Shown here one piece after another: positions 5,999 through 28,584 of a stretch of DNA of 64,000 nt. The notes beneath the pieces are model-generated. The model saw only the letters and a list, made by a program, of their open reading frames with translations, did no database searches and had not been told where the DNA came from. Position 1 is the stretch's first letter. Each line of letters begins with the position of its first letter. Source of the stretch: Candidatus Omnitrophota bacterium (GTDB lineage Bacteria > Omnitrophota > Gorgyraeia > Zapsychrales > Fredricksoniimonadaceae); contig CAJARJ010000021.1 in assembly GCA_903944345.1 (NCBI GenBank), positions 5,528 through 69,527 of the forward strand, given 5' to 3'. A program made the position numbers and the translations under genes.

Positions 5999-6996
5999 TC
6001 GCAGTGCATGCGCTCTTTATATATTTGACAGGACGTTGTCCGCTAAACTGTACCTATTGTTATTTGCGCAGACGTTCTGTGCGGGATTTATCCTGGCCGA
6101 CCGTTGTTCGAGTTCTGGATAGTATATCCAGAGATCTGGGGCTACCCCGGAAAATTGTTATCAGCGGCGGGGAGCCTTTTTTATGCTACCCAATGCTCAG
6201 AAAGCTTGCTCTGGAGGTGCGGCGGCGTTTTTCCTGGTTGCCTTTATCGGTGCAGAGCAACGGCTTGTTGCTGGACAAAAACAGGATCTCTTTCCTGAGG
6301 GCTGTGCAGGCCGGACTGGAAGTAGGGATAGATGGCAAAGAAGAGACTACGTTACGGCATCGTCGGGGACTTACCGGCAGTATTTATAACCGCCTTCTCG
6401 GAAATATTCGTGCTGCTGTCCGTTCAGGACTGTCGGTCAGTTGTACAATGACGGTTCATCCGGATCAGGTGGAGCATATGGAAGAGAATTTTATTTTTTT
6501 GAAATCCTTAGAATTGCGGTCAATTGACATCACCCCGGCCGCGTTTATGCTTTGGACGGACGCCTCGGTACGGGATTTCCGCAGGAATTACAGCCAGATT
6601 CTCCAGGGACAGTCAGGGCAAGGAAGGGTTCTGGTCGCGGAAGATAAGAATCTTTTTGGTGAAGCTTTCTTGGATCTTAGCGTCTACCCCGACGGAAGCG
6701 TGCTCTGTGGTGATGCCTATTCTTGTCTACCAGCCGGGGTCAAACGGGCCAGAAGCTTGGTTCTGCCATCGGGTCAGCTTGAAAAGAAACGGTTAAATTT
6801 TTTTGTCCGGCAGTATGCATCGCTTTGGAGGTCTGGGAGTTCTTGCAGTTACAGAGATTATGTCCGCAGGAGTTTCGAGATTGTGGATCGTTTGGCCGGA
6901 GGTGCTCTTGATGCGGGTCGGCTTAATGAAATGATGCGTTTTATAGGTGGGGCGAATTTGAGGTTGGTTTCAGCTGAAAGAATTTGTCCGGAATAA
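5995..6996 (+). CDS. Radical SAM protein; paralog of 22139..23152
   Basis: CPLNCTYC (CxxxCxxC) at the N-terminus when started at the internal ATG at 5995, which overlaps the upstream stop. GGEPFL SAM-binding motif; LSVQSNGL block shared with the 22139 gene. Confidence 0.8.
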   Translation: MIAVHALFIYLTGRCPLNCTYCYLRRRSVRDLSWPTVVRVLDSISRDLGLPRKIVISGGEPFLCYPMLRKLALEVRRRFSWLPLSVQSNGLLLDKNRISFLRAVQAGLEVGIDGKEETTLRHRRGLTGSIYNRLLGNIRAAVRSGLSVSCTMTVHPDQVEHMEENFIFLKSLELRSIDITPAAFMLWTDASVRDFRRNYSQILQGQSGQGRVLVAEDKNLFGEAFLDLSVYPDGSVLCGDAYSCLPAGVKRARSLVLPSGQLEKKRLNFFVRQYASLWRSGSSCSYRDYVRRSFEIVDRLAGGALDAGRLNEMMRFIGGANLRLVSAERICPE

Positions 6997-7687
6997 AAGA
7001 GTCTTGGTGTGGCCGCTTATCCATCAGCGTATAAACAGCGGTATTGGCACGCAGGATGTTGGACAGGGGTTGTTTGTGCCGACGTAGCTCAAAAGGTATG
7101 TCCAGGGTTGTGGCAATAAACGGCAGGGATATAAAGGGTGCGAGAAATCTCAGTTGATGGACAGCTGCTGCGCGGCGGTGCTGGATGAGGGAGATCGGTT
7201 CTTTGGCCAATAGAAGTTTCTTTAGGTATTTGTCGGAGGAGCATAGAACGTCATCGGCGCCCATACCGCTGAGAACCGTTTGGATGTCCTGTTGTTTCAT
7301 CAGGGTAAAAAGATGATCAGCGGCCGGCAGATATTGATCAAGGGAGTGTTGCCAGCGACGGCGTTGCAGAATTCTTAAATGTGCCTGGAAGATTTCCAGG
7401 CTAATGGGAACAGAATGGAAACGAAGAGACAGTCGACGGGCAAGATTACGACAGTGACGGATGGAGTGCTGGTTATAACTGGCGCAGGATGAGTCAAGAA
7501 TCTCGGCAAAATACAGTTCCGGGGACAGGTCTTGTGTGATGCAGGCAAGGGTGGTTGAGTCGATGCCGCCAGTAAAAAGAATTGCGATATGGCCTTTAGC
7601 GCAGCGGGGACGAATGGTTTGCTGCAGAACGGTTTCCAGTGATCGGCGTTCAGCGGGCGCAGATGAGGGTGAAGACTTGCTTATCAT
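6941..7687 (-). CDS. Asparagine-synthetase-like PP-loop (ATP pyrophosphatase) domain protein, short form
   Basis: AILFTGGIDSTTLA (SGGxDS PP-loop) and SGMGADDVL blocks as in the AsnB C-terminal synthetase domain. At 248 aa it has no N-terminal glutaminase domain. Confidence 0.5.
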   Translation of the reverse strand: MISKSSPSSAPAERRSLETVLQQTIRPRCAKGHIAILFTGGIDSTTLACITQDLSPELYFAEILDSSCASYNQHSIRHCRNLARRLSLRFHSVPISLEIFQAHLRILQRRRWQHSLDQYLPAADHLFTLMKQQDIQTVLSGMGADDVLCSSDKYLKKLLLAKEPISLIQHRRAAAVHQLRFLAPFISLPFIATTLDIPFELRRHKQPLSNILRANTAVYTLMDKRPHQDSFIPDKFFQLKPTSNSPHL

Positions 7688-7702: not shown

Positions 7703-8416
7703 ATGCTTGCAGCGGTTGCCGCGCTGAAAAATGTGTTACAGGGTTGCATGCCTTGCGTAACGAGCAGACGCCGGATAGCCATCCTTTTTACGGGCGGACT
7801 GGATTCTACGGTACTAGCGGCTCTTGCTGCTCACCAGCGGCCTGTTTTGGTCTTTGGGGTCGTACTTGATCGGGATTGCCGGGTTTATAACGCCCGGTCT
7901 ATTCTGTATTCGCGGCGTATCGCCGCTATTCTGGGACTTACGTTTAAAACAATCGGGATAAGTCAGCGGGATTATCATGACGGAATAAGGGCGATGTTAT
8001 CAGCGGGCGTATATTCAAAAGACAGAGATTTGCCTGCGGCGGCTTTCCTTGTCAAAGCCCTACGAGCTCAGGGGGTGGGAGGGGTGGTGAGCGGTATGGG
8101 GAGTAATGAGCTTTTCTCTGCCAGTAAAAGAACGTTATCGATGATTCCAGAACTGCAGGCAGCTTACAGTGAACATCGCCTGCTGGGTCGCGCAGAAAAA
8201 ATTATCTTTCGAGCGCCTTTTCTTGAGGAGCCAGTCATAAAGGTTGTGCGTGGACTTGTGCGCTCGGGGCATGCGCGTACAGACGTTCTGGGAGCGCTTC
8301 TGGCCGGTTATCCGGATGTCTGCCGGCTGATGAAAAAGAGAGTGTCCGGACATTCTATGGTGCCTAAAAGATTCTTGCCGGTTCGGATGACAGTCGAACC
8401 AGAAAAGGGTGTATGA
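7703..8416 (+). CDS. Asparagine-synthetase-like PP-loop domain protein, short form
   Basis: AILFTGGLDSTVLA PP-loop and VSGMGSNELF block; 237 aa. It diverges from 6941..7687 with only ~15 nt between the annotated starts. Confidence 0.5.
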   Translation: MLAAVAALKNVLQGCMPCVTSRRRIAILFTGGLDSTVLAALAAHQRPVLVFGVVLDRDCRVYNARSILYSRRIAAILGLTFKTIGISQRDYHDGIRAMLSAGVYSKDRDLPAAAFLVKALRAQGVGGVVSGMGSNELFSASKRTLSMIPELQAAYSEHRLLGRAEKIIFRAPFLEEPVIKVVRGLVRSGHARTDVLGALLAGYPDVCRLMKKRVSGHSMVPKRFLPVRMTVEPEKGV

Positions 8417-9246
8417 GAAAATCTGTTATGCCTGGCATTCCTCCGCAGGAGGCTGTTACTGTTTACGGGGGGTATGTGCGATATTATCATTCAACCGAAT
8501 CATGTCGTGATTTGGCAAGGCTGGCCGAGGAACGCAAGCTAAAACAGGTTCTGGCCTGTTGTGGCGGAGGTGATCAGGCATTGACTCTTTTGGCCGGACT
8601 GGATAAAAAAGGAATCTTTTGGGCATTTGATCTTCAACCGGCTCAGTTGTTTGTGCTTGCGGCCAAAGCGCTTTATCTGCTGGAACGTAAAAGCCCTCCA
8701 TTTTATCCGTCCTTTTCTGTGATACAAAAGATGTATCCTGGCCGTATTTCTGCCCAGCCCCCGGATCGACGGAGAGTTGATCGATTATACGATGCCCGGC
8801 TTAAATGTTTTAGGGATCCGTTCAAAATGTTTCAGAAAAGATTTCTTTATGAATGCGACGGAGGATTGTTTGAGGACGGGCAGAGAACCCCATTCTGGTC
8901 CCGGGATCGGGATTACTGTCAGTGTATTTGCCGGAATATTGTCCGGCTCAGGCTTCTACGGGGAGATTTGTTCTATCTTGATCATTTTTTTAAACCGGCA
9001 ACAGTTGATTTGATATATGTGTCGGATATTTCTTTGGTTGCCGCCCAGGATTTCTTGTTGCAACGGATATCAGCGACTGTAGCCTTGTTGAGGCGAGGGG
9101 GGTGCCTGGCAGCTAATGCGGATTCCGGGGAGAGGTTTCTGGGAAATGGGATTTCGGTAGCTGATATGCTGGAGAGAAATTCTTCCCGACTGGGGCTAAT
9201 GGCTGGCGGGGTCAGCGGGGCGCTCAAAGTTTTTGAGAAGGCCTGA
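8413..9246 (+). CDS. DUF3419 / BtaA-like class-I SAM-dependent protein (homolog of 3-amino-3-carboxypropyl transferases); paralog of 18373..19296
   Basis: Blocks VLACCGGGDQALTLL, AFDLQPAQLFVL and DLIYVSDI resemble the BtaA/DUF3419 motifs VLSI(S/T)SAGCNxLxLL, AVDLNPxQ and LSNIxDW. GGYVRYY is conserved with the paralog. Confidence 0.45.
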   Translation: MRKSVMPGIPPQEAVTVYGGYVRYYHSTESCRDLARLAEERKLKQVLACCGGGDQALTLLAGLDKKGIFWAFDLQPAQLFVLAAKALYLLERKSPPFYPSFSVIQKMYPGRISAQPPDRRRVDRLYDARLKCFRDPFKMFQKRFLYECDGGLFEDGQRTPFWSRDRDYCQCICRNIVRLRLLRGDLFYLDHFFKPATVDLIYVSDISLVAAQDFLLQRISATVALLRRGGCLAANADSGERFLGNGISVADMLERNSSRLGLMAGGVSGALKVFEKA

Positions 9247-10660
9247 GCATGTGTCAGAGAAGGGCGCGTTAATGCGAGTAAGAAGAAAAAAGTTCGCTAT
9301 TCTGCAACTTATTCCCAAGCATCAGAACATGCTGCCGAATCAGTTGGTCAGAGCACTGTCTTTACTCAAATATCATCAGGTCGAATATGCTGTTTATGAT
9401 CTGGAGGCTTCGCTGGAGGCCGAGGCGGGGCAGGCGGTCGCTTCTCTTTTTGCAAAGATCAGGGAAGACGAGGTTGTTGTTTCCCTGGCTTGTCATTACA
9501 ATTATCCCAAATTGACCAGCCTAGTGCTTTTGTTTATGTACCAAGGCCTGTTGAAGGGCAAGCAGATTCATGTGTGTTCGCCGTATCTGTCTTTTTATCC
9601 GGTCAAACAGATTTGTTGCGAGAATATGTTTTTTCATTTTGTCGAGATCGATGAGTTTCTGGTTTCGTATTCAGGGTGGCCTTTTGTAGCTGAGGGCCTG
9701 TTGCTCAAGCCAATGGCTGAAGTTCTACGTGATCAGAATTACACGAATCGTGAATTCTGGACGCATCTGACCTGGGGGTGTCGTTCCTCCTGTTCTTTTT
9801 GTCATAATTGGGCGACAGCCAAGGGCAGAGAGCGGCTTGTCTATTCTGGGTACGATGAGGTGCTTTCCTTGATGCAGACGGCTCGTGCGCTTGGTGCGCG
9901 CAAATTTCAGTTTGCCGATCCTGACTTTCTGGGGGATGCTGCCTATGTTGGAGGGTTTCTTGAAAAGCTGACGGAGGCGGGTGGGTTCTTGCCCTGGCGA
10001 GCCAAGGCAAGGTTAGACAGGATCAATGAGTCAATGTATGAAAAAATGCTTGCTGCGGGGTGTGATCGTATATTCTTTGGTGTGGAGCATGTATCTTCTC
10101 GAATGTTAGACAGGGTCAATAAAGGTGAGAATACTCCGCGGCTGCTTTTGGACTTTATAAAATATTGGGGAACACGCGTGCAGCTCGATGTTTCTTTTCT
10201 CACAGGAATACGTGAAGAGACGGTGTCCGAGTTAAGAGAAAATATTCGTTATATATCCAGAATAGACAAGATTCGCGGGATAGAGGCTTATTTGGGGTAT
10301 GTGATTCTGTATTCCGGGTCTGCACGCAAAGTGGCTTTTAGCGATTATCTGGTGGCCTTTCTGCTGGTTTGCAATATGTTGCCCGAGGAATGGGAAATTG
10401 GGCAGGACTTTCTCAGAAGATTGTTGCAACTCTGTCAGCAAGAGCCCTTTTTTGGCTTTTTTATTCTTACCGAGAATGACCATAGTTTAGCGTTGTTCCA
10501 AGAACTGCTCCGGCAGAATAAGGCGGATATTGCGCCGGATTTTCTTTCAGATTTCGCCAGATTGTGGACATCGGTGGATGGGCGGCTCGCGAAGATTGTT
10601 GCGGGATCAAAGACGACAGGGGAGGTTAACCAAAAGATAGATCAATGGCTACTGAAGTAA
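9233..10660 (+). CDS. B12-binding-domain radical SAM protein (class B rSAM-like); paralog of 19289..20668
   Basis: WGCRSSCSFC cluster motif (CxxxCxFC) after a ~170-aa N-terminal domain consistent with a cobalamin-binding fold. FQFADPDFLGD block shared with the paralog (FKFRDPDFLGV). Confidence 0.65.
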   Translation: MRRPEHVSEKGALMRVRRKKFAILQLIPKHQNMLPNQLVRALSLLKYHQVEYAVYDLEASLEAEAGQAVASLFAKIREDEVVVSLACHYNYPKLTSLVLLFMYQGLLKGKQIHVCSPYLSFYPVKQICCENMFFHFVEIDEFLVSYSGWPFVAEGLLLKPMAEVLRDQNYTNREFWTHLTWGCRSSCSFCHNWATAKGRERLVYSGYDEVLSLMQTARALGARKFQFADPDFLGDAAYVGGFLEKLTEAGGFLPWRAKARLDRINESMYEKMLAAGCDRIFFGVEHVSSRMLDRVNKGENTPRLLLDFIKYWGTRVQLDVSFLTGIREETVSELRENIRYISRIDKIRGIEAYLGYVILYSGSARKVAFSDYLVAFLLVCNMLPEEWEIGQDFLRRLLQLCQQEPFFGFFILTENDHSLALFQELLRQNKADIAPDFLSDFARLWTSVDGRLAKIVAGSKTTGEVNQKIDQWLLK

Positions 10661-12237
10661 AACAAAACAATAAAAGTGGTTTTAGGGTTTCTACAGACGG
10701 CCTCTTTCTGCTGATGCAGCTTTGCGTTGCTTTGGGTGGCGGGCTGATCCTTGCCTGGGCATTAGCTGCCTGGGGAATCGGGATCAATAGTGATTCTGAG
10801 GCGTATCATGTTATGTCCCGGTGTTTGTCGGAGAAAGAGGGAGCTTTTAATGCTGTACCGGATTGTAAAACGCTGTCCCTGCATTTTCCTCCATTGTATC
10901 CGTTGCTAATTTCATTGATGCGTGGCTGGACCGAGAGTTTTATGGAGCGTTCGGCGGGATTGAATGTTTTTCTTTATTCGGGAAGCATTTTTGTTTCCGG
11001 AAGCTTGTTTAAAAGGCTTACCGGCTTGCCGTTTATGGGGCCCGCCGGAGCCCTGCTTGTTGCTGTTGCCCCGGTGGTTGTCAAGGCGCATACGGAAGCC
11101 ATGACTGAGGCCGTGTTTATATTCCTTACGTTGGCCGGCTTGTTCTTCTTTTTATGTTATTTGGAAAGAACCAGTTATTGGCGGTTGCTGGCAGCAGGGG
11201 TTCTCACCGGGTTATCGTTATTGTGCCGTTTTGCCGGACTGACTACCATTTTGGCGATGATGGTGACGATAGTTCTTTTTAAATCGCAACAAAGAAAGCC
11301 AGCGATTTTTGATTCTGTATTTTTTGTGCTGATAGCGTTGATGCCTATGGGGGGGTGGTGGATCAGGAATTTTTTTGATTACGGATTGTCGCTGGATCGG
11401 ATTGTTGTTTTTCATCCGCCAGGATGGTCTGGGTGGAGTGAGGCGTCCGGGGTTTTTTGTATGTGGCTCATGAGTCCGGTTTTCTGTTCTTTTATAAAAG
11501 AGATTGTTTTGTTGCTGGGATTCGTTGTTTTTTTTCTATTCTGCTGGCGGATTGGTAAGGCGCTGGCACTCAGGAACACAAAAGATACGGAAATTTTTCT
11601 TTTTTGGTCTTTTATGGCGGTTATGGCGATCTTGTTTTACCTGATTGGACTGGTGTTGACGATTTCCTGGCTGGACGGGTATATGACTTTGTCGCGAAGG
11701 TATTTGTTGCCGGTTTATGTTTTTGCAATGATCCTTTTTCCGGCATGGTTGCTCAGAAGAACGATCTGTTGCCAGGCGTCAGGCTCCTTGAGAGTGTTTC
11801 TGGGAAAGGTCTTACTTGTCTATTGGGTGTTTTTCAATTGTTCGGTTTCTGTTACCTGGTTGTGGCAGCAGCACTCACGCGGGAGTGGTTATGCGAGCCG
11901 TAACTGGCGGCAATCACCAACGATGCAGGAGCTCTGCCGACTGTCGCGTGAACATGTGATTTTCACCAACCTCAAGGCAGCAGCAGTAATTCATTCGGGT
12001 GCCCGCATATTTGAGATTCCGTGGTTGTCAGATCCGATGAACAGCCGCATGAATGCTCATTACCAGCAAGAACTAGAACAAATGGTGCGGCAGATAAAGG
12101 CGGGTAACGGCCTGCTGGTCTATTTCGATCAAGCTCCGAGTGACTTGCCGATTGAGTCTGCGCAGGTTCTGACGGAACGGTTGTCTTTGCGCATGGTGGC
12201 AAAGTTTGCTGACGGGGCGGTTTATTTGCCGGAATAA
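10645..12237 (+). CDS. GT-C-fold polytopic membrane glycosyltransferase-like protein (ArnT/PMT family-like)
   Basis: 530 aa with ~11-13 TM helices, an acidic first extracytoplasmic loop (INSDSEAYHV) and a ~110-aa hydrophilic C-terminal region, as in GT39/GT83 enzymes. It sits directly upstream of two Thr/Asn-rich secreted repeat proteins. Confidence 0.45.
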   Translation: MATEVKQNNKSGFRVSTDGLFLLMQLCVALGGGLILAWALAAWGIGINSDSEAYHVMSRCLSEKEGAFNAVPDCKTLSLHFPPLYPLLISLMRGWTESFMERSAGLNVFLYSGSIFVSGSLFKRLTGLPFMGPAGALLVAVAPVVVKAHTEAMTEAVFIFLTLAGLFFFLCYLERTSYWRLLAAGVLTGLSLLCRFAGLTTILAMMVTIVLFKSQQRKPAIFDSVFFVLIALMPMGGWWIRNFFDYGLSLDRIVVFHPPGWSGWSEASGVFCMWLMSPVFCSFIKEIVLLLGFVVFFLFCWRIGKALALRNTKDTEIFLFWSFMAVMAILFYLIGLVLTISWLDGYMTLSRRYLLPVYVFAMILFPAWLLRRTICCQASGSLRVFLGKVLLVYWVFFNCSVSVTWLWQQHSRGSGYASRNWRQSPTMQELCRLSREHVIFTNLKAAAVIHSGARIFEIPWLSDPMNSRMNAHYQQELEQMVRQIKAGNGLLVYFDQAPSDLPIESAQVLTERLSLRMVAKFADGAVYLPE

Positions 12238-12456: not shown

Positions 12457-13005
12457 ATGCTCAAACTATTGATTTCCATTGTTTTGTATTTTTTCTCGTG
12501 CGCAGCGGCTTGGTCGGAGGAAATTATTCTGACCACCTTTTATCCGCCCCCTAGCGGGCAGTTTTTGAATCTGACTGTGTTGGGCACTTTGGGTGTAGTG
12601 AACATCAATATTACGGGAACACTGACTATCGCCACTTTAAATGTCACGGGGAATGCTTCAGTTGGTGGAACTTTGAATGCTCGCAATACAACGCTTGGCG
12701 CAACGCTGAACGTGACCGGGGCCACAACTCTTGCCAGCACCCTGAGTGCCGGAGCCACCTCGATTAATGGGACATTGAACGTGAGTGGGCTAACAACGCT
12801 GGGTGCTCTGAGTGCTGCAGCCACCACGGTTAACGGGACTTTGAATGTGACCGGGGCCACCGTAATTACTGGCGCGTTAAATGCTCGGGCGACGACAGTT
12901 AACGGGACTCTGAATGTGAGCGGGGCCATGACCAGTGGTGGGATGTCCGCAGGAGGTTTTACGACAGCGGGGACAACCCAATGCGGTTCTTTGAATCTGT
13001 ATTGA
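12457..13005 (+). CDS. Secreted Thr/Asn/Gly-rich tandem-repeat protein (predicted beta-solenoid and/or glycoprotein)
   Basis: Signal peptide MLKLLISIVLYFFSCAAAWS, then conserved TTFYPPPSGQF, then repeats of the type (A/T)TT(I/V)NGTLNVTG(A/V)TTL. Most Asn lie in N-x-T sequons. Confidence 0.6.
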   Translation: MLKLLISIVLYFFSCAAAWSEEIILTTFYPPPSGQFLNLTVLGTLGVVNINITGTLTIATLNVTGNASVGGTLNARNTTLGATLNVTGATTLASTLSAGATSINGTLNVSGLTTLGALSAAATTVNGTLNVTGATVITGALNARATTVNGTLNVSGAMTSGGMSAGGFTTAGTTQCGSLNLY

Positions 13006-13089
13006 AGGTTGATCTTTTGGGATCTTCTTTTCGGAAACGCCTTGCGTGTGTTTTATGCAAATGTTAAGCTTTGTATTAGAAAGGGTCGC

Positions 13090-13644
13090 ATGGCAAAAAT
13101 CTGGGGTTTACTGCTTTTTATAGTTCTCTCCGCTAGCAGAGCCTGGTCGGATAACCTGGTTTTGACTACATTTTATCCGGCTCCAAACGGGCAGTATTTC
13201 AATATGAATGTAACGGGCACTCTGTCGGCCAATAATCTGACAGTTACCGGAACATTGACCGCTGCCACATTGAATGTGACCGGAAACATGACCGTTGGTG
13301 GTGCATTGAGTGTTACCGGGGCCACAACAATCAACGGGACGTTAAACGTAACGGGGGTCACAACGCTGAATGTTTTGAATGCCCGTAATACAACAATTAA
13401 TGGGACGTTAAACGTAACGGGGGTCACAACCCTTAGCACTCTGATTGCGGCCGCCACAACAATCAACGGGACGCTGAACGTGACCGGGGCCGCAACGCTT
13501 GCCAGCACTCTAAGTGCCGGTGCGACAACGGTGAACGGTGGGCTGGGTGTTACCGGAAATTCGACAGTAGGCGGCACGGTAACTGCCACCGGGTTTACAA
13601 CAGGGGGAACCCTGACGACCAATCGGCTGATTATTTGTCCCTGA
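13090..13644 (+). CDS. Secreted Thr/Asn/Gly-rich tandem-repeat protein, paralog of 12457..13005
   Basis: Start moved to the internal ATG at 13090, which has an AAGGG RBS (track ORF starts at 13009). Signal peptide MAKIWGLLLFIVLSASRAWS; conserved TTFYPAPNGQY; ~22-aa repeats VTGxTTLxxLxAxxTTINGTLN; 13 of ~21 Asn in N-x-T. Confidence 0.6.
   Translation: MAKIWGLLLFIVLSASRAWSDNLVLTTFYPAPNGQYFNMNVTGTLSANNLTVTGTLTAATLNVTGNMTVGGALSVTGATTINGTLNVTGVTTLNVLNARNTTINGTLNVTGVTTLSTLIAAATTINGTLNVTGAATLASTLSAGATTVNGGLGVTGNSTVGGTVTATGFTTGGTLTTNRLIICP
13230..13560. repeat. Intragenic near-identical tandem DNA repeats (~33 and ~66 nt units) encoding the NGTLNVTG repeats
   Basis: The units GGGACGTTAAACGTAACGGGGGTCACAAC and AACGGGACG(C/T)T(A/G)AACGT(A/G)AC(C/G)GGGG recur within 13.3-13.5 kb. 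A similar set lies at 12.6-12.93 kb in the upstream paralog. Confidence 0.55.
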
Positions 13645-13653: not shown

Positions 13654-14091
13654 ATGCGGGAGAACTTCATGAAGAAATTATTGCAAACGGCGGGCTGGGT
13701 CAGGCTGCCGGTTCAAACAGCTGTTTATCCTGTGCAGACAATTTATTCTGCCGGGTATGTTTTTCTAGATCGGGCCTATTTCTATCTGGAACCGGATGGC
13801 AAGAATGCTGTGTCCGTATGGATGAGTCCAAAAAAGAAAACAGATGATCTGGAATTGCTGGCCAAGGAGTTTTATCAGGAATTGCTTAATTACGCGCACT
13901 ATTTTATCAGCCTTAAGTCTAATGGAGATCACGTCAGGCTTTTGTTGCAGAGAGCGCTTTTTTCTGCCGCGCCTTCATTGGTCAAGGAGGCTGAAGAGCG
14001 CGAAATTCAGCAACTGATCAAGGAACTGGAGCAGGAGGATTTGTCGGCTTCGAAGAAGAAACAGAGCAAGAAGCCACCCGCTTCGACTTAG
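13654..14091 (+). CDS. Hypothetical protein (possible HxsD-like accessory protein of the maturase cassette)
   Basis: 145 aa, with a hydrophilic, Lys/Glu-rich C-terminus. It is first in the co-directional run 13654 > 14122 > 15092 > 16485 > 16933 with short gaps or overlaps. The functional call rests on position only. Confidence 0.35.
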   Translation: MRENFMKKLLQTAGWVRLPVQTAVYPVQTIYSAGYVFLDRAYFYLEPDGKNAVSVWMSPKKKTDDLELLAKEFYQELLNYAHYFISLKSNGDHVRLLLQRALFSAAPSLVKEAEEREIQQLIKELEQEDLSASKKKQSKKPPAST

Positions 14092-14121
14092 AATTGTACT
14101 TGTAGCAAGCGGGAACGGGAG

Positions 14122-15111
14122 TTGATTATGAGCGTTGCGATTGCCCCGGAGATGCAGAATCTTTTTAGCAGGCCGGCAGAAAAATTTGCCAAAAGAGTGG
14201 TTGTTTTTACAGGATTCAATTGTTCCAATAAATGCTGTTTTTGTGCGGTTGAGTCTAAGCGTCCGGCCGTAGATAAGACGACCGAAGAAGTTCTGCGGGA
14301 GATGGCGCGTGCTTACGAGCGGGGCGCCCGGCAACTGGTGCTTTCCGGAGGGGAATGCACTTTAAGAAAAGATATTGTTGATTTGGTGCGGGCCGCCCGT
14401 CAAAAAGGCTTTGTGGATGTGCATATTCAGAGCAATGGTCGAAGGTTTTCTGATATCGGGTTTTGCAAGGAAATGTTTGCGGCAGGCATGAGTTATCTAG
14501 GGACATCGATTCATGGCCCTAGCGGCGCGGTGCATGATGATTTGACCGCAAGGCCGGGCAGTCTGCGTGAAGTTGTTGAAGGCATTCATAATCTTAAAAG
14601 GCTTGCCCGGGGACGTATTGGCATTGCGATTAACTCGGTCATGGTCCGGCAGAATTTTGCTTTATTACCAGAGACAGCCAGTCTTTTAGTCAGATTACGG
14701 CCGGATTTGCTGCAGTTCGCGTTTGTGCATGCTTGCGGCTTTACAGAAGAGCGTTTCAGAAGATTTGTTCCCAGAAAGACGGACGTTGTTGCCTATGTCA
14801 AGCAGGGAGTAGATATAGCTGTTGGCGCAGGGATTCCGGTTATGGTGGAGGCAATTCCTTACTGTCTTTTGACCGGCTATGAGAAGCATTGTTCGGATCG
14901 GTTTATTCCCTCTACGGATGTGATTGAGCCGGGACGGGAAATTTTGAATTACGAGCAGGTTCGGCTTCGCAGCAGCAAACGCAAGTTTGCCCGTTGCCTG
15001 GACTGTCGTTTTGATGCGATTTGTGAAGGGCCGTGGCAGCAGTATCCTGAGCATTATGGAGATGAGGAATTCCAACCGGTAGAGGCAGAGTATGTCAACC
15101 AGAGAGCTTGA
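14122..15111 (+). CDS. Radical SAM protein (HxsC-like candidate)
   Basis: FNCSNKCCFC cluster motif; SGGECTL SAM-binding block; C-terminal Cys pairs (CLDCRFDAIC). Overlaps the next gene by 20 nt. Confidence 0.75.
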   Translation: MIMSVAIAPEMQNLFSRPAEKFAKRVVVFTGFNCSNKCCFCAVESKRPAVDKTTEEVLREMARAYERGARQLVLSGGECTLRKDIVDLVRAARQKGFVDVHIQSNGRRFSDIGFCKEMFAAGMSYLGTSIHGPSGAVHDDLTARPGSLREVVEGIHNLKRLARGRIGIAINSVMVRQNFALLPETASLLVRLRPDLLQFAFVHACGFTEERFRRFVPRKTDVVAYVKQGVDIAVGAGIPVMVEAIPYCLLTGYEKHCSDRFIPSTDVIEPGREILNYEQVRLRSSKRKFARCLDCRFDAICEGPWQQYPEHYGDEEFQPVEAEYVNQRA

Positions 15112-16501
15112 GTTTTTTGTTGTTCCCTACAACTCGAAGAAAATAGGCCAGCGGCATCTTGTGTCCAACAAGCTAGGCGGGTGGGCTTTTCTTGATCACA
15201 AGGACTTTGCGACGCTTTCTTCTCTGGATTGTCAGCCCGGCACGGAGCTTTTTGAGCGTTTGCGAAACGCCGGGGTGGTGGCGGATGTATCTAATATCGG
15301 GTCTTTGTTGAGCGGTTACCGCAAAATGAACCAGAATCTTTTTTCAGATACCAGTCTGCACATTGCAGTCGTGACGACTCGTTGCAATTTGGCCTGTCAA
15401 TATTGTCAGGCTCGGCCAGAGTCGGGCGAGGATATGTCCCCTGAGGTTGCCTCACGTGTCCTGAAATATCTTTTTGATGTCCGCAATCCTTCGGTCATGC
15501 TGGAATTTCAGGGCGGGGAGCCGCTAATGAATTGGCCGGTTGTTTCTCTTTTAACGGAGCATGCGCGCAAATTCAATACGTCCGGCAAGCAGTTGCAGAT
15601 TGCCATGGTCAGCAATTTCTTATTGTTGACCGAGGAGCAGATCAAGTTTCTTGTCGAGCACGAGGTTAATCTTTGTACGTCTCTGGATGGGCCGGAAGAT
15701 TTACATGATCAGAACCGGAAGGATTGGGCTGGCAAGGGGACTTACAAGGAATTAATGCGCAAAGTGGATCTTGTGCGCAAGAAATTCAACTGGCCGGTGC
15801 ACATGCTTCCGACGATTACCAGAGCTTCGCTCAAACACGCGCGCCGGATTATCGATGAGTATGTGCGTCAGGGGCAGCTGGAAATCTGCCTGCGTCCAGT
15901 GAATGATATGGGGGCGGCGCGTTGTTCCTGGAAGAGTCTGGGATATACGCCGGAAGAGTTTCTTGCTTTCTATCGGGAAGCCTGCGAATATATTTTTGAG
16001 TTGAATCGCAAGGGGATTGCCGTTCGGGAGCGAATGGCCAGAGTTCTTATGACCAAGGCTCTTTTTAAAGAAGATCCGCGCTATGTAGATGTGATGAATC
16101 CCTGTGGGGCCGGCAGAGTGGTTATGACGTATATGCCGGATGGTGGCTGCTTTCCTTGTGACGAAGCCCGGATGGTAGGCGGGGATCTTTTTAAACTGGG
16201 GAATATTTTAAAGGACGACTATAAAGATGTTATTTGTAGTGAGAACCTTTTGAATCTTTTGCAGTCTTCCTGTTCGGATCTTTGGCAAAGCGCTTCAGTT
16301 TACAGCCCTTGGACGGGATATTGTCCGGTCGTTAATTACGCGACTCAGCAGAATGTGATTGCAAAGTCAGCCTGTTCCCAGGCCCAGAGAATTTTGGAGG
16401 GGCAGTTTGATTATCTTTTCGAGAAACTGGAACAGGGTGGGGAAAACGAAATGTTTTTAAGGGAATGGGCGAAAGGAATGGCGCATGAAGAAAAAAAATA
16501 A
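15092..16501 (+). CDS. Radical SAM / SPASM-domain peptide-maturase-like protein (HxsB-like candidate)
   Basis: TTRCNLACQYCQ preceded by a ~90-aa N-terminal extension that may bind the precursor; GGEPLMN block. C-terminal auxiliary-cluster Cys pattern CGAGRVV...DGGCFPCDE...WTGYCPV...CS, typical of SPASM enzymes (anSME- and sactisynthase-like). Overlaps the start of the first precursor. Confidence 0.8.
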   Translation: MSTRELEFFVVPYNSKKIGQRHLVSNKLGGWAFLDHKDFATLSSLDCQPGTELFERLRNAGVVADVSNIGSLLSGYRKMNQNLFSDTSLHIAVVTTRCNLACQYCQARPESGEDMSPEVASRVLKYLFDVRNPSVMLEFQGGEPLMNWPVVSLLTEHARKFNTSGKQLQIAMVSNFLLLTEEQIKFLVEHEVNLCTSLDGPEDLHDQNRKDWAGKGTYKELMRKVDLVRKKFNWPVHMLPTITRASLKHARRIIDEYVRQGQLEICLRPVNDMGAARCSWKSLGYTPEEFLAFYREACEYIFELNRKGIAVRERMARVLMTKALFKEDPRYVDVMNPCGAGRVVMTYMPDGGCFPCDEARMVGGDLFKLGNILKDDYKDVICSENLLNLLQSSCSDLWQSASVYSPWTGYCPVVNYATQQNVIAKSACSQAQRILEGQFDYLFEKLEQGGENEMFLREWAKGMAHEEKK

Positions 16502-16916
16502 TCAGCAGCAAGCGCGCCCGAGAATTCCGCGTTCTCTGAGGCTATTTATCCGGGATGAAGAGGGGTTTGTCAGCAAAGAAACTATTTTGAATGTCGGATT
16601 GACGGCGATAGGTGTGGTCGGGCTGTTGGGAATTTCTTCTGATGTGGTCAATGCCGCGCACTCCAGTCACGCTTCACATTCCAGTTCCGGTGGCGAACAT
16701 GGCAGCACGACAATACCGGGGACAAGCTATGCCATGACCGCGCATATTAATGATGTTGTCTATCCCGCTACACCGGCCGGAGGATCCTGCATGGAGCTAA
16801 GTCCACCGACGCATTCCAATGTTGCGGCAACGCATTGCAACCGGGCGGCTGTGCATGGAAGCTCCATATCAACGCATACGAATGTTACGCCGCATGCAAA
16901 TCATGACTCGTATTAG
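16485..16916 (+). CDS. His-rich precursor-like protein A1 (His-Xaa-Ser/Asn triplets; HxsA-like)
   Basis: 143 aa. Basic N-region MKKKNNQQQARPRIPRSLRLFIRDEEGFVSKET, hydrophobic segment ILNVGLTAIGVVGLLGI, a VNA|AHS site, then a core AHSSHASHSSSGGEHG...GGSCMEL...THCN...HANHDSY with 11 His in 88 aa and 2 Cys. Confidence 0.65.
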   Translation: MKKKNNQQQARPRIPRSLRLFIRDEEGFVSKETILNVGLTAIGVVGLLGISSDVVNAAHSSHASHSSSGGEHGSTTIPGTSYAMTAHINDVVYPATPAGGSCMELSPPTHSNVAATHCNRAAVHGSSISTHTNVTPHANHDSY

Positions 16917-16932
16917 CAAAGCGAGAGGATAT

Positions 16933-17355
16933 ATGAAAATAGACAAGACCAAAAGCAGGATTTTCAAGGCCCCGCGGACGCTAAAAGGATTTCTTGACGG
17001 AGAAGATGGCTATGTCAGCAAGGAAGCTATTTTGAATGTCGGATTGGCCACGATTGGCGTTTTGGGGGTGATGGGATCTTTTTCCGACCCGGCTTATGCC
17101 GCGCACAGCAATCATGGTTCGCATAGCAATGGAGCCGGGACTTTTCATGCCAATGCCTCGGCAGGGCATGTCAATACGGCTGTGGCGCATAGTAATCTGC
17201 AGCATTATGATGATTTCCCATCCGGTGGGTGCCGCGAGTTGCTGCCGGATCACAACAATATTGCTGCGGCGCATTGCAATGTTGGGGCCACGCATTCCAA
17301 CATTCCGGGCACACATGGCAACACCAGCGGGCACGCCAATCATTCCTCGTATTGA
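16933..17355 (+). CDS. His-rich precursor-like protein A2, paralog of A1
   Basis: Start placed at the ATG at 16933, which has a GAGAGGA RBS (track ORF 16819 is a spurious 5' extension overlapping A1). N-region and hydrophobic segment ILNVGLATIGVLGVMG are near-identical to A1; AYA|AHS site; core AHSNHGSHSNGAG...GGCREL...AHCN...HANHSSY with 13 His in 87 aa and 2 Cys. Confidence 0.65.
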   Translation: MKIDKTKSRIFKAPRTLKGFLDGEDGYVSKEAILNVGLATIGVLGVMGSFSDPAYAAHSNHGSHSNGAGTFHANASAGHVNTAVAHSNLQHYDDFPSGGCRELLPDHNNIAAAHCNVGATHSNIPGTHGNTSGHANHSSY

Positions 17356-17426: not shown

Positions 17427-18398
17427 ATGGATTTTCCATATCTTGATTCTGCTGATACCCCTCAGATTGCGGCATTATGGCTCAGGAACAATTATGCGCC
17501 CGCCGTTCCTCGAACCCAATTGATCGAGCATATTCGCTGGAAATATGATTCCCGACGAGCTGTGATTTACAGCCAAAGGGAAGAGGGCCGGATTTTTGCC
17601 ACAACAGGCTACTTAAAGGGATCTTTCTGCAATGGAAACAGCATTTTTAGTATTGGTTGGGGCATGGACTCTCTGATTGATGAGCCGTTAAGAGATGGTC
17701 GTGTGTTTGCCTTTATGCGTGTATTGCGCTCTACCATGCGTTCTGCCGAGCACGAAATTCTGGTTGCTTTTGCCAACAAGAACGTTCACGACACCTATTT
17801 ACGGATTGGTTTCCAGCCTTGGAATGGTTTTTTCTTTTATCAGGCAAAGCTGCAAGCCGGGATGGTGCTGCCAGTTCGACCCGACAGGGGGTTTGATCTT
17901 TTATGGAAAGATGAGCTGGATGTGTCGGGGGCTGAAGCTCTGTTCAGGCGAACGCAGGGGTTTTATCAGGGGATCAGTCCGAGAGACAAGGAATATCTGG
18001 ACTGGCGTTATGGTCAATGTCCTTTTCGTCGGCATGTGTTTCTGCATGTTTATCGGCAAAGGGTTTTGGTTGGATATTGTGCGGTACGCTTTGTTTTGCA
18101 ACCGGAATCGCGGACAGGCTATATTGTGGATCTTCTGGATTCTCCCGACGATGATGCCGTGCTGGAGGTTATGTTGCTGGAGCTTATGGCACGTTGCCGG
18201 CAGCGAGAAATTGCGCAGATCGAAACTGTTTTGACGAATGGGCGGATTTCACAGGGACTGTTGCGTTGTGGATTTTTTCGGCAGCAGCAGGAAACTGTGT
18301 TGGTGTGGCTGAAGAGTGACCGGGCACGCAGGTTTTTTGAACAGGGTTCGACAGGCATGCATTTGACGATGAGTGACGGCGATTATGATATGGAATAA
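17427..18398 (+). CDS. Hypothetical protein, possibly a GNAT-fold / FemAB-like acyltransferase
   Basis: 323 aa. The C-terminal half has a GNAT-like topology (VGYCAVRF...GYIVDLL...LELMARCRQREIAQIE); I recognised no diagnostic motif. Confidence 0.3.
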   Translation: MDFPYLDSADTPQIAALWLRNNYAPAVPRTQLIEHIRWKYDSRRAVIYSQREEGRIFATTGYLKGSFCNGNSIFSIGWGMDSLIDEPLRDGRVFAFMRVLRSTMRSAEHEILVAFANKNVHDTYLRIGFQPWNGFFFYQAKLQAGMVLPVRPDRGFDLLWKDELDVSGAEALFRRTQGFYQGISPRDKEYLDWRYGQCPFRRHVFLHVYRQRVLVGYCAVRFVLQPESRTGYIVDLLDSPDDDAVLEVMLLELMARCRQREIAQIETVLTNGRISQGLLRCGFFRQQQETVLVWLKSDRARRFFEQGSTGMHLTMSDGDYDME

Positions 18399-19296
18399 GT
18401 TAGGTAGTGGGCAAGGTTCGCAATGGCCCCGGAAGGAGAAGAGTATGGTTGGCGTTCACCGCAAGCCGCTGGATATAGAAGAAATGATGACAACGTGCGG
18501 CGGGTTTGTACGCTATTTTGGCACCAATGAACCGGTGTCGCATATTGCCAGTGTCCTGGAGAAAACAGTATTCCGTCGGGTTTTGGCTTGCTGTGGAGGA
18601 GGGGATCAGGCTTTGACATTGCTCGGGCTGGCGGGGCGCCCTTCAGAAATTTATGCGTTTGACATGAATCTGGCGCAGCTGTTTGTTCTGGCCTGCAAGG
18701 CCCAGCTCTTCAAGGATAAGAAAATGAAGACGTATGCTCCTTCTTTCGATCGGATCAGCCGGTTGAACATGGGAAGAATTCGCGCCCTTCCTAATGATGT
18801 TCGGCCCGTGGATACGCTGCTGACTATTCCAGGAGAAAGAAAGATTGCGCTGGAACATGTTTTTGCCGGCCGGTTTGGCTACGAGGTCGACACCGGGATG
18901 CACGATTTTCTCAAGAAGAATATTTACTGGGCAGATGATGCGCGTTTTATTTCCAGGATTCGTTCCGGATTGCCGGCGCTTAAAGGAATTCATTGTGATT
19001 TGCTTTCCTTGTCGGACTGGTTTGCGCCGGATTATCTCGATGTGATATATGTGTCGGATATCCCTTTGCACAATGCTATTCCTTATTATCTGGAAAGACT
19101 GCGTTGCCTGGTGGATTGTCTGGCGCCGGGTGGATTGTTTATTGGCAATCTGGAGGATCAGGCGGTTCTGGATCGCTGCCCGTCGGTGATTGAGGTGATG
19201 CGCAGTTATAAGGATTTGTTCGGGTTAGTGGAGTTCAGGAAAACAGGACAAATTCTGGCTTTACGCAAGGTGCGGCCTGTCAGAAGTATTGGATAA
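18373..19296 (+). CDS. DUF3419 / BtaA-like class-I SAM-dependent protein (paralog of 8413..9246)
   Basis: GGFVRYF, VLACCGGGDQALTLLGLAG, AFDMNLAQLFVL and LDVIYVSDIP blocks. Confidence 0.45.
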   Translation: MTAIMIWNKLGSGQGSQWPRKEKSMVGVHRKPLDIEEMMTTCGGFVRYFGTNEPVSHIASVLEKTVFRRVLACCGGGDQALTLLGLAGRPSEIYAFDMNLAQLFVLACKAQLFKDKKMKTYAPSFDRISRLNMGRIRALPNDVRPVDTLLTIPGERKIALEHVFAGRFGYEVDTGMHDFLKKNIYWADDARFISRIRSGLPALKGIHCDLLSLSDWFAPDYLDVIYVSDIPLHNAIPYYLERLRCLVDCLAPGGLFIGNLEDQAVLDRCPSVIEVMRSYKDLFGLVEFRKTGQILALRKVRPVRSIG

Positions 19297-20668
19297 AAGA
19301 ACGATGCCCCGAGAAATTGCTGTCATTTTTTTTGCGCAGGATGACCGTGTTGTGCCGGTGGATTTGGTTGAGGCCATTGCCTGGTTGGAACAGTCGGGAA
19401 TCAGGCACAAGCTTTACATGCCGGCACGCGGGAAAAGAGGCAGCTGGCGGCAAGCTGTTGCTGAAACTTTGAGCGGAGTCCAGGCGGATGAAGTGTTTGT
19501 ATGTTTTTTGAATGAAAATCATTATCTGGCAACAGCGTCTTTACTTCAGCTGGTCTTTTGTGCAGAGTTTCTCGGGGATAGAGATATTCATGTCTGCCTG
19601 CCGGCTTTAAGTTTGTTTAGGGGGCGGCCTGCGTTGCGGGGGCGTTTTGTCTGGCACGCAAAGAAACTGACGCAGGTTCTTGGTGAACGGCTGGACGGGT
19701 TGAAAAAAGAGCGGTTATTCTCACCGGAAGTCCTTGCCGATGTCACGGTTCGTCTCGGATACAGAAGACAGATCCTTTCGGCTCTCTGGTCGCCGGGGTG
19801 CGGGCACAGCTGTTCGTTTTGTTTTTCCCGTGACAACGGAGAAATGATTGAGCCTGATGCCGGCATTCGTCAGGAAAAACTAGTTTTTCTGCTTGAGCTG
19901 GCGCGTTTAACCGAAGCAAGTTGTTTTAAATTTCGTGATCCTGACTTTCTGGGAGTTCCCGCTAACGCCTGGGAGGCGTTGCGGATTCTTGGTTCTGTCG
20001 CTCCGGGTACAGCGTTTAGATGTAACGCACGACTGGAAGACCTCAATAGAGAGGCACTTGTGCGTCTTGCGGACGCCGGATGCTCCCAGGTATTTTCCGG
20101 TGTGGAGCATGTTTCGATGCGCCTGGTGGAGGCGACAGGAAAACAGGAGAAAGTTCTCGGTCTATTAGCGGGCGTGTTGGCCCATAAACCCCGCAAGATG
20201 GATCTTGCCTTGTCTTTTCTGGCCGGCCTTCCGGGAGAGACCTTGCCGGAGGCGAAGGATAATTTGTGTTTGATCAGGAAGTTAATGAAGTTGAAGGGGG
20301 TTAAACCATATCTTGGGTATTATGTTTTGTTTGCCCAAGAGGTCCGGTCAGGGGCTTTTTTCGATCCCTTGCTGGCTTGCCTGAATTTTTCGGCGATTGT
20401 TCCCGAGGGCATGTTTCTGGATTATCAGGATTATTGTGGCCTGCTAAAGACAGTTAGAGAAGATGCTTTTTTCAGTTTTTTTGCTGCTGCCCTTAATCGA
20501 AACAGCGCTGAGGTTATTCGAATGTTGCTGCGCGAATTTAGCGCGGACGCATGCTTGTCTGAGTGCATGCCGATGGCTAGAAAACTGCTTCTGTTGCGCC
20601 CGGAGCTGGCCAATAGAATAATGAGTGAGCTTGGTGCGCCAACGTTTTTGTGCAGGGGGGCTGTGTGA
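19289..20668 (+). CDS. B12-binding-domain radical SAM protein (paralog of 9233..10660)
   Basis: PGCGHSCSFC cluster motif after a ~165-aa N-terminal domain; FKFRDPDFLG and FSGVEHVSMRL blocks shared with the paralog. Confidence 0.65.
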   Translation: MDKRTMPREIAVIFFAQDDRVVPVDLVEAIAWLEQSGIRHKLYMPARGKRGSWRQAVAETLSGVQADEVFVCFLNENHYLATASLLQLVFCAEFLGDRDIHVCLPALSLFRGRPALRGRFVWHAKKLTQVLGERLDGLKKERLFSPEVLADVTVRLGYRRQILSALWSPGCGHSCSFCFSRDNGEMIEPDAGIRQEKLVFLLELARLTEASCFKFRDPDFLGVPANAWEALRILGSVAPGTAFRCNARLEDLNREALVRLADAGCSQVFSGVEHVSMRLVEATGKQEKVLGLLAGVLAHKPRKMDLALSFLAGLPGETLPEAKDNLCLIRKLMKLKGVKPYLGYYVLFAQEVRSGAFFDPLLACLNFSAIVPEGMFLDYQDYCGLLKTVREDAFFSFFAAALNRNSAEVIRMLLREFSADACLSECMPMARKLLLLRPELANRIMSELGAPTFLCRGAV

Positions 20669-27381: not shown

Positions 27382-28584
27382 TTAAGGTTTCAGGATTTCG
27401 ATGGTGCGGGCTGTTCCGGTAAACCATTCTTGCGGCGGCGCGGGAAAGTTTCCAGGTTTTTCGCATTTCTCTCGTATTGCTGCTGCCAGTGTTGCGGGTT
27501 CCAGTTCGTGATAGTTAAGGACAGTGCTGTTGATCCGTTCCTTGAGTAACAGGGCCCGGGATTGCTGGTCGTTGGCGGGTTCATTCTGGGTTTTATTAAT
27601 ATATGGAACGATTATGCTTTGCGTTCCCGAGGTCAATAGTTGTACGGAAGTGTTGTAGCCGCACATGCTGATTGACAGCTGGCAGGAGCGCATGAGTTGA
27701 GCCAGTCCGGGGACGTGGTCAAAGAGGCGGATGCGGCTGCGATCCGATAAAGACAGGCAGGCCTCGAAGAGTTTTTTTTCTTCAGGGGTTGTTGAGGGAC
27801 CGCAGGCGATGGTCATGCGATACTTTTCACCCAGATGCTTGTGCGCCCGGATGGCACAGGCAATTATATTAGGGTAAACCGCCCCGCCCCCCCGGCTGAT
27901 AACAATATGATATGGTGCCGGATGCGGCCAATTAATGATTTGTGGCGGGCAGGGATCTTCAGCTGGAAGGACATAGCCGGTATAAGTGATTTTATCCCGG
28001 ATACGTTCAAAGAACTGGTCGTAGCCTGTCTGCAATTCGGGTTTTGCCAGAACTGTTCGAAGATAAGGATTTTCCAGTTGAGGAGGGGTGTGGATCAGCA
28101 ACTGGTCATAGAGGCCGATCAGGCGTATGGTCAGATCCATATCGCCCGACTTGGCCAGATTATAGATTTGAATCAGAAAAGGATAGCCGATACTGGCATA
28201 GATTTTTTTTCCGCATTGGCGTAGATGGCGTAAGGCCGGCAGCAGTTCCGGCGTGTAGTCCGCCCGTCCGAAAGGAAAAAATTCGGTTACGAAGATGTCA
28301 GGATTAACACTGCGGACTGTTTTCATAACGAACTCGCAGCGCAGGGGCAGAGATGTTGCGCTGCGCCCGCCGTGGAAGCTGAGTCGGGAATCGAATGGAT
28401 AAGGAATTGGGTGCAGGCCAACATTCTTTGGAAAGCGGATTGCGGGTTGCTCGGTTCCGGCCTGCAGAAGATGCACGCGGACTCCTGCCCGGGAGAGTCC
28501 ATGGCAGAGGGCGTGAACCCGGGTGCTGTGTCCCAGAGTGCCTTTGTGGGTGTAGTGAATCAGTACCGAGGGTTTCTTTTGCAT
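27382..28584 (-). CDS. GT1-family glycosyltransferase (MurG/MGT-like fold)
   Basis: Start placed at the internal M (MQKKPSVLIHYTHKGTLGHSTR), which gives the Gly/His-rich N-terminal loop typical of GT-B GT1 enzymes. The 448-aa track ORF would otherwise overlap the divergent CorC gene. Confidence 0.5.
   Translation of the reverse strand: MQKKPSVLIHYTHKGTLGHSTRVHALCHGLSRAGVRVHLLQAGTEQPAIRFPKNVGLHPIPYPFDSRLSFHGGRSATSLPLRCEFVMKTVRSVNPDIFVTEFFPFGRADYTPELLPALRHLRQCGKKIYASIGYPFLIQIYNLAKSGDMDLTIRLIGLYDQLLIHTPPQLENPYLRTVLAKPELQTGYDQFFERIRDKITYTGYVLPAEDPCPPQIINWPHPAPYHIVISRGGGAVYPNIIACAIRAHKHLGEKYRMTIACGPSTTPEEKKLFEACLSLSDRSRIRLFDHVPGLAQLMRSCQLSISMCGYNTSVQLLTSGTQSIIVPYINKTQNEPANDQQSRALLLKERINSTVLNYHELEPATLAAAIREKCEKPGNFPAPPQEWFTGTARTIEILKP

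Follow-up and report, generated by a model that had tools for sequence, protein, structure and literature searches.

A window of 64,000 nucleotides from a Candidatus Omnitrophota bacterium (assembly GCA_903944345.1, contig CAJARJ010000021.1, positions 5,528 to 69,527 of the forward strand; hereafter the window) contains two genes for small transferase-like proteins of the DUF3419 superfamily, each followed directly by a gene for a radical S-adenosylmethionine (SAM) enzyme of class-B-like architecture. The transferases were found to be a remote offshoot of DUF3419 without its lid. On balance, we favour the reading that each transferase and its radical-SAM partner form a two-step tailoring module within a conserved cluster of the surface-glycoconjugate type.

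Two transferase genes and their radical-SAM partners

Two open reading frames (ORFs) of the + strand encode the transferases, copy 1 (MT1) at 8413-9246 with 277 aa and copy 2 (MT2) at 18373-19296 with 307 aa. The products were paralogs, with 34% identity over 266 residues (E 1e-44). The ORF start of copy 2 at 18373 was a GTG upstream extension, and the ATG at 18445 is probably the real start, because a database protein of 283 aa that is 100% identical to copy 2 (P0001) begins there. Copy 1 may start either at 8413 or at M6. The genes and motifs of the two pairs are as follows.

8413 to 9246, + strand: copy 1 (MT1), predicted SAM-binding, class-I-fold protein of the DUF3419 superfamily; 277 aa, or 272 aa from M6
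9272 to 10660, + strand: radical-SAM partner 1, matching a protein of 462 aa (P0101); CxxxCxxC at nt 9776-9802; possible TTG start at 9233
18445 to 19296, + strand: copy 2 (MT2), predicted SAM-binding, class-I-fold protein of the DUF3419 superfamily; 283 aa
19304 to 20668, + strand: radical-SAM partner 2 (called start taken from loci L005 and L006); CxxxCxxC at nt 19796-19822; possible TTG start at 19289
8548 to 8592 in copy 1 and 18580 to 18624 in copy 2, + strand: motif I, the glycine-rich SAM loop, VLACCGGGDQALTLL; LACCGGGD invariant in the family
8623 to 8670 in copy 1 (AFDLQPAQLFVLAAKA) and 18655 to 18702 in copy 2 (AFDMNLAQLFVLACKA), + strand: end of strand 2 and the next helix
9007 to 9030 in copy 1 (DLIYVSDI) and 19039 to 19062 in copy 2 (DVIYVSDI), + strand: strand 4 motif

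Both ORFs were real, and the sequence blocks that an earlier note on this DNA had quoted were found verbatim in each copy. In MT2 numbering, G53 and D54 of motif I were common to the DUF3419 motif "SAGDN"; D73 and Q78, which were invariant in the family, were common to the "D.NPAQL" motif; and S204 and D205 of the strand 4 motif were common to the "NLSDIFEY" motif. The quoted motifs are far from chance, since they were invariant over the 30-member family and several were common to bona fide DUF3419 proteins.

A radical-SAM gene for a protein of ~460 aa lay directly downstream of each copy on the same strand, with a gap of 25 nt after copy 1 (partner ATG at 9272) and 7 nt after copy 2 (partner ATG at 19304). 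Because of this spacing of 7-25 nt, the transferase and its partner are predicted to be co-transcribed. The earlier note had called the genes fused in an operon; they were adjacent and tightly spaced, with no gene fusion.

The same arrangement was found at related loci. A class-B-like radical-SAM gene stood directly 3' of the transferase at 6 of the 7 informative genome loci, and in metagenome contigs the partner was directly downstream at 10 of the 12 loci with enough downstream DNA. Overall, about 16 of 19 informative related loci had the pairing (some metagenome loci duplicate genome loci), so that the pairing proposed earlier is real and conserved. One metagenome contig (L032, 5992-9034) had the order transferase, radical-SAM, transferase, ApbA. 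The pairing had also been thought undescribed, and no prior description of it was found in the searchable literature.

Family size and distribution

The two copies belong to a very small family that is essentially restricted to Omnitrophota. Among 5.8 billion sequences, the family consisted of 29 clusters at 90% identity, and the members came almost all from Omnitrophota metagenome-assembled genomes (MAGs). In 185,579 species genomes there were nine family loci, six in MAGs labelled Omnitrophota or Omnitrophica and three in MAGs labelled "uncultured Planctomycetales". A HMMER search of 1.84 billion representative proteins with the family profile (A1) gave 12 proteins below E 1e-30 and 18 below E 1e-10. 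No Pfam, NCBIfam or PADLOC model covered the transferase family, and PADLOC had no defence-system model for the transferase or for its radical-SAM partner.

Relationship to DUF3419

The search with Pfam PF11899 (DUF3419), the check named in the earlier note, gave an equivocal result. Copy 2 scored 21.4 bits (E 1.6e-4), short of the gathering threshold (28.2), and only its residues 62-121 were matched, to positions 26-83 of the 385 in the profile; copy 1 alone had no Pfam match at E <= 1 and no NCBIfam match. Among the 30 members, weak Pfam matches were obtained to Methyltransf_25 (24/30), Methyltransf_11 (19/30), DUF3419 (18/30) and Methyltransf_31 (13/30), and the best DUF3419 E-value was 5.6e-5.

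More sensitive comparisons pointed to DUF3419. In the profile search of the 1.84 billion proteins, 53 of the 58 proteins in the next tier (E 1e-10 to 1e-3) were DUF3419-positive, among them P0090 and P0098, full-length DUF3419 proteins that matched the entire Pfam model with 214 and 216 bits. This result is a fair specificity control, because generic methyltransferases far outnumber DUF3419 proteins in a library of this kind. Profile-profile comparison of the family alignment with an alignment of 21 bona fide DUF3419 proteins (A4) by hhalign gave a probability of 98.2% (E 4e-14) over 213 aligned columns. Eleven residues (MT2 numbering) were identical and at least 90% conserved in both families: R23, Y24, E29, L47, G53, D54, L60, D73, Q78, S204 and D205. 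The shared signature of the DUF3419 type thus had four elements, namely RY...E ahead of strand 1, a GD(Q/N) loop and, behind strands 2 and 4, D..AQL and SD respectively, and in the Omnitrophota family the loop G-G-D-(Q/N) stood in place of the usual D/ExGxGxG. By these sequence comparisons, membership in the DUF3419 superfamily is real but remote.

The nearest relatives outside the family, at E 1e-10 to 1e-3, were short DUF3419-like proteins of 210-305 aa (such as P0042, P0046 and P0047), which shared the motif pattern LA.CGSGDQA...AVD.NP.Q...IYLSN and were also without the full DUF3419 lid. No radical-SAM pairing was found in the neighbourhoods of P0042, P0045, P0046 and P0047. The genes of P0046 and P0047 were located directly upstream of aminoacyl-tRNA synthetase genes (L020, 1274-3998; L022, 109-3164), while that of P0042 was among unrelated genes. 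At one of the two synthetase loci an AlaRS-like gene was followed by Archease, and at the other the synthetase was a ThrRS with an archaeal-type editing domain. Judged from this gene context, P0046 and P0047 might be tRNA-modifying SAM enzymes.

Differences from BtaA

BtaA is an aminocarboxypropyl transferase (PMC10491745), and for the R. sphaeroides protein the match to DUF3419 has P = 2e-106 (PMC6642084). The characterised members of DUF3419 are the BtaA-type SAM:diacylglycerol 3-amino-3-carboxypropyl (ACP) transferases alone (PMC6642084, PMC10491745). The BtaA architecture was defined by a lid of ~150 residues between strand 2 and strand 4 together with a C-terminal segment. The hhalign alignment jumped over ~100 columns of the template in the interval from strand 2 to strand 4; these columns were the DUF3419 lid, which holds the invariant W162 and W167 (WNTWRWR) and N217-P218 (NPY). 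The Omnitrophota family had instead an insert of ~75 residues after strand 2, with invariant residues of its own (P99, F101 and W162). This insert was partly beta in the predicted model, whereas the DUF3419 lid is long and helical. The C-terminal segment of DUF3419 (the DKAFFY region) gave no alignment to the family, and no BtaB-like gene or additional methyltransferase gene adjoined either copy in the window.

The family therefore resembled BtaA and the C-terminal domain of BTA1 in its homologous SAM core and in an insertion at the same place after strand 2. It differed from BtaA in sequence, with ~24% identity over the aligned core, in length (277-283 aa against about 360-415 aa) and in gene surroundings, which were of the radical-SAM and glycan type here and of lipid synthesis for BtaA. 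Because the lid was missing, the C-terminal segment was unaligned and no BtaB-like neighbour was present, copies 1 and 2 are judged not to be BtaA orthologues, and diacylglycerol is unlikely as the acceptor. The two copies had been described as DUF3419/BtaA-like; the homology was upheld by the hhalign probability and by the 53 of 58 DUF3419-positive neighbours, and orthology to BtaA was not.

As the earlier note proposed, the transferases could still be ACP transferases in the manner of BtaA, attacking C-gamma of SAM, releasing methylthioadenosine and installing a group of +101 Da, which the radical-SAM partner and possibly an amidotransferase would then elaborate. This reading is rather unlikely in our estimate. 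In its favour, ACP transfer is the sole characterised DUF3419 chemistry (PMC6642084, PMC10491745), the residues common to the two families cluster at the SAM site, and neither family has the usual acidic residue in motif I. Set against this are the low identity to DUF3419 (~24% over the core) and the missing lid. Remote homology is also a weak predictor here, since families of the class I fold switch the transferred group: Trm5 transfers methyl, and its close homologue Tyw2 transfers ACP. Moreover, the Protein Data Bank (PDB) held no solved DUF3419 structure by which the determinants of ACP transfer could be defined.

Predicted fold of the transferases

The AlphaFold2 model built on the family alignment (mean predicted local distance difference test score, pLDDT, 84.5; predicted template-modelling score, pTM, 0.83) showed the Rossmann core of a class I methyltransferase and the insert after strand 2. 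The modelled Rossmann core, the GGGD loop and the invariant D73 at the end of strand 2 agreed with the class I SAM-dependent methyltransferase fold. Foldseek comparison with the PDB gave 313 matches at E <= 0.001, of which NNMT, PNMT and INMT ranked highest (E ~1e-6, TM-score ~0.43), and the top matches were all class I methyltransferases. Neither copy 2 nor the family profile found more than chance-level matches in sequence searches of the PDB.

The fold matches bear on a second reading, in which these are conventional O- or N-methyltransferases of glycan or peptide tailoring, the likeness to DUF3419 reflects ancestry of the SAM-binding half only, and the step of the radical-SAM partner is independent. 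We consider this reading to fall just short of an even chance. It agrees with the fold matches (NNMT, PNMT and INMT), with the weak matches to Methyltransf_25, Methyltransf_11 and Methyltransf_31 in 24, 19 and 13 of the 30 members, with the methyltransferase names in NCBI and JGI, with the persistence of the transferase without its radical-SAM partner in one lineage (P0002, below), and with the base rate of the class I fold, as the overwhelming majority of SAM enzymes of this fold transfer methyl. However, the Foldseek result cannot discriminate between the readings because a database without a DUF3419 structure could return none. Furthermore, the first relatives outside the family were DUF3419 proteins and not the far commoner generic methyltransferases (1.84 billion proteins searched), and motif I was without the canonical D/E and followed the DUF3419 pattern.

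The radical-SAM partner

Partners 1 and 2 were paralogs (29% identity, E 3e-43), and both matched Pfam Radical_SAM (E 4.7e-12 for partner 1 and 7.9e-5 for partner 2). The PF02310 B12-binding domain was not detected by Pfam in either partner or in five homologues. NCBIfam gave weak, core-only matches to the class-B families ApyD, AprD4, PhpK, HpnJ and ArsL, and the best PDB sequence matches were AprD4 (E 8e-6) and OxsB (E 0.01).

The AlphaFold2 model of the partner (pLDDT 78.7) fell into three parts: a Rossmann-like domain with five strands at the N-terminus, a barrel in which CxxxCxxC was invariant, and a C-domain made of helices. In the Foldseek ranking AprD4 came first (E 5.8e-11), followed by TsrM, CysS, MgmA, MiaB/RimO and TokK. 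The partner was like AprD4 (6fd2), TsrM (6wte), CysS (9n1d), TokK (7kdy) and MgmA (9ccb) in its three-part architecture (Foldseek E 5.8e-11 to 1e-6), and it differed from all five in TM-scores of ~0.5, identities of 12-16% and an N-domain motif of its own. Going by the model, the partner has the architecture of a class-B radical-SAM enzyme. The earlier note had called the partners cobalamin-type; the class-B architecture fitted this description, and the partners may or may not use cobalamin, as no PF02310 match was obtained and the best solved match, AprD4, is cobalamin-independent.

The motif of the N-terminal Rossmann-like domain was an invariant IH(V/I)C.P (H100 and C102 in P0101 numbering; 9566-9583 and 19586-19603 in the window). 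It differed from the canonical cobalamin motif DxHxxG, and the cysteines were too few for an auxiliary cluster of the MiaB type. ACP-radical chemistry of the ArsL type was considered for the partner and set aside, as the ArsL match was weak (E 1.3e-5) and generic and the cluster-binding motif was the canonical CxxxCxxC.

The surrounding gene cluster

By synteny with other Omnitrophota contigs, the two modules belong to a conserved cluster that extends over ~1.1-28.7 kb of the window and is followed by housekeeping genes. The following features were found in and around the modules.

1104 to 28728: conserved Omnitrophota cluster, which also includes a DUF2334 deacetylase-like gene
3808: ApbA/PanE-like reductase
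4808: PaaK-like AMP ligase
5926 and 22139: radical-SAM/SPASM genes
6941 to 7687, - strand: Asn-synthase protein of ~240 aa with the PP-loop domain only, divergent to the gene at 7703-8416 and upstream of copy 1
7703 to 8416, + strand: Asn-synthase-like PP-loop protein of 237 aa with the synthetase domain only (Pfam Asn_synthase, E 1.9e-11); stop codon and copy 1 start codon overlap (ATGA)
10645 to 12237: PMT_2 membrane glycosyltransferase
12457 to 13005 and 13009 to 13644: two secreted NxT-repeat proteins
13654 to 14091: HxsD
14122 to 15111: HxsC/HxsC4-like protein
15092 to 16501: HxsB (369 bits against a cutoff of 370)
16485 to 16916 and 16819 to 17355: two HxsA3-like repeat proteins
17427 to 18398, + strand: protein of 323 aa of no known family, conserved upstream neighbour of MT2-type genes
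20650 to 22155, + strand: full-length Asn-synthase-like amidotransferase (NCBIfam asn_synth_AEB, E 4.4e-25; Pfam Asn_synthase and GATase_7)
23149: DegT/PseC-like sugar aminotransferase
24258, 25373 and 26289: three more radical-SAM genes
27382 to 28728, - strand: GT28-like glycosyltransferase

Across the loci, the conserved neighbourhood consisted of the ApbA/PanE-like reductase, the PaaK-like AMP ligase, two PapB-like radical-SAM/SPASM enzymes, two or three further radical-SAM enzymes, the DegT/PseC-like aminotransferase and the GT28-like glycosyltransferase. The PMT_2 membrane glycosyltransferase, MBOAT, the DUF2334 deacetylase-like protein and the Asn-synthase-like amidotransferase were variable neighbours. 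Because the neighbours were mostly of the glycan type (sugar aminotransferase, glycosyltransferases, deacetylase and Asn-synthase-like proteins), the gene content suggests a pathway for a surface glycoconjugate or glycoprotein more than a classical peptide maturation cluster. The earlier proposal of a maturation cluster is doubtful for the same reason, although a His-Xaa-Ser system lies inside the cluster.

The 323-aa protein had no Pfam, NCBIfam or PADLOC match. Its orthologues preceded the MT2-type genes of L009 (43%) and L010 (29%), and likewise those of L026, of the same lineage as L009, and of L027, which is the same contig as L010. The NxT-repeat proteins had "TLNVTG / INGTLNVTG" repeats dense in N-x-T sequons, a common N-terminal motif "LTTFYP.P.GQ" and only a weak bactofilin-like match; from their sequences they are possible glycoprotein substrates.

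The Asn-synthase-like genes bear on the ACP reading. They lay beside both window copies, and an amidotransferase of the 20650-22155 type also followed the MT2-type modules in L009 and L010; the carboxylate of an ACP group could be amidated by such an enzyme. Precedents for combinations of this kind are diphthamide, in which ACP transfer is followed by amidation by Dph6, and wybutosine, in which the radical-SAM enzyme TYW1 is followed by the ACP transferase TYW2. The wybutosine (TYW1 then TYW2) and diphthamide (Dph2, Dph5 and Dph6) pathways join radical-SAM chemistry to a non-methyl transfer from SAM, and in diphthamide an ATP-dependent amidation by a PP-loop enzyme takes place on the same substrate, as would be conceivable for the Asn-synthase-like genes here. 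The analogy is conceptual only: TYW2 is Trm5-like, Dph2 is not of the class I fold, the substrates are tRNA and elongation factor 2, and the enzymes are unrelated to the present pair. In addition, most modules (L001, L002, L013 and others) were without a nearby Asn-synthase gene, and Asn-synthase-like enzymes of glycan clusters usually make another product, namely uronamides.

A complete His-Xaa-Ser (HXS) system, at 13654-17355, was located between the two modules, and HxsD-HxsB-HxsA was syntenic with the cluster in L002, L010, L013 and L034. This arrangement raises the third reading, that the pair takes part in the maturation of ribosomally synthesized and post-translationally modified peptides (RiPPs) and acts on the His-Xaa-Ser or NxT-repeat proteins alongside HxsB and HxsC. 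Besides the HxsD, HxsC, HxsB and two HxsA3-like genes and their synteny, several radical-SAM enzymes of the cluster were PapB-like SPASM proteins and the partner weakly matched the RiPP enzyme ApyD. Against it, HxsA-D suffice for the characterised HXS system (PMC13128918), the pair occurred without detected Hxs genes in L001, L011, L015 and L028 (several of which were short or cut near a contig end and may have Hxs genes farther away), and the other conserved neighbours were of the sugar type (DegT, glycosyltransferases and deacetylase). A role in RiPP maturation is accordingly judged improbable.

In E. coli, HXS was recently shown to act against phage, with HxsA-D as its only required components (PMC13128918). 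An anti-phage accessory function of the pair to HXS was set aside on the ground that this published system needs no further component (PMC13128918) and that at several loci the available sequence contained the pair but no Hxs genes.

The cluster of L001 also contained, a few kb 5' of the transferase, a radical-SAM gene (545-1909) whose product has a PF02310 B12-binding domain, and weak class-B-like tblastn matches were found at the equivalent upstream position in L029, L030, L038 and L039. Outside the cluster, two adjacent ORFs of 1422 aa and 1375 aa occupied 49395-57818 of the window, with a faint PPDK_N match in the second as the sole Pfam match. GC skew was strongly and evenly positive throughout the window (0.09-0.26 in each 2-kb interval), and nearly all long ORFs were on the + strand.

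Proposed two-step tailoring module

In the reading that we favour, the pair would act as a two-step tailoring module within the conserved cluster, with both enzymes acting on one intermediate. On this shared intermediate, the DUF3419-like enzyme would use SAM to alkylate an O or N nucleophile by polar chemistry. The radical-SAM step would be either a dehydration or deoxygenation like that of AprD4 or a C-methylation. The product of the cluster would be of the cell-surface glycoconjugate or glycoprotein type, and not a membrane lipid.

Several observations weigh against the proposed module. The first concerns the interdependence of the two genes. A lineage on at least 17 contigs, the one closest to copy 2, keeps an intact MT2 orthologue (P0002, 67% identical to MT2; L009, L025 and L026) and the rest of the cluster intact, and its radical-SAM partner is a remnant ORF of 57 aa that still matches the N-terminus of the partner, at these positions:

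L009, 7254 to 7427
L025, 3320 to 3493
L026, 3284 to 3403

Because this lineage has only the remnant, the transferase and the partner are not strictly interdependent. At another locus (L037) a radical-SAM gene of the SPASM type was downstream of the transferase instead. The family assignment is affected by the Pfam results, in which DUF3419 was sub-threshold or absent and generic methyltransferase models matched equally weakly, and by the database names, as NCBI calls a few members "class I SAM-dependent methyltransferase" and JGI also names some as methyltransferases. As to the substrate, its class was drawn from the neighbouring genes alone, and the His-Xaa-Ser peptide system and the PapB-like SPASM enzymes in the same cluster make a peptide substrate possible.

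With regard to the group that the transferase would move, the sequence evidence gives methyl an even chance. Transfer of 3-amino-3-carboxypropyl or another non-methyl part of SAM is clearly less probable, and another role, such as that of a SAM lyase, a cyclase or a non-catalytic SAM-binding partner, is less probable again. In the most specific form of the non-methyl proposal, the family would keep the SAM use of BtaA and place ACP or another non-methyl fragment on a sugar or peptide, which a cobalamin-independent, class-B-like radical-SAM enzyme would rework and which an Asn-synthase-like enzyme would amidate in some modules. We regard this as unlikely.

Implications

The new element, as judged from the sequences, is a compact, lid-less branch of DUF3419 that Pfam and NCBIfam models do not recognise and whose genomic partnership, with a class-B-like radical-SAM enzyme, is also new. 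If the chemistry of BtaA is kept, the range of ACP transfer would widen beyond lipid acceptors, and the reaction would be coupled to radical chemistry in one module. The family would then supply the first case of a DUF3419-type enzyme whose acceptor is not a lipid, and a previously unknown SAM-derived decoration would be present on a cell-surface polymer of these ultra-small bacteria. If methyl is transferred, the DUF3419 SAM site would not be diagnostic of ACP transfer, which would matter for the widespread habit of naming every DUF3419 match BtaA. Either outcome would help to decode a conserved, radical-SAM-rich cluster of an uncultivated phylum.

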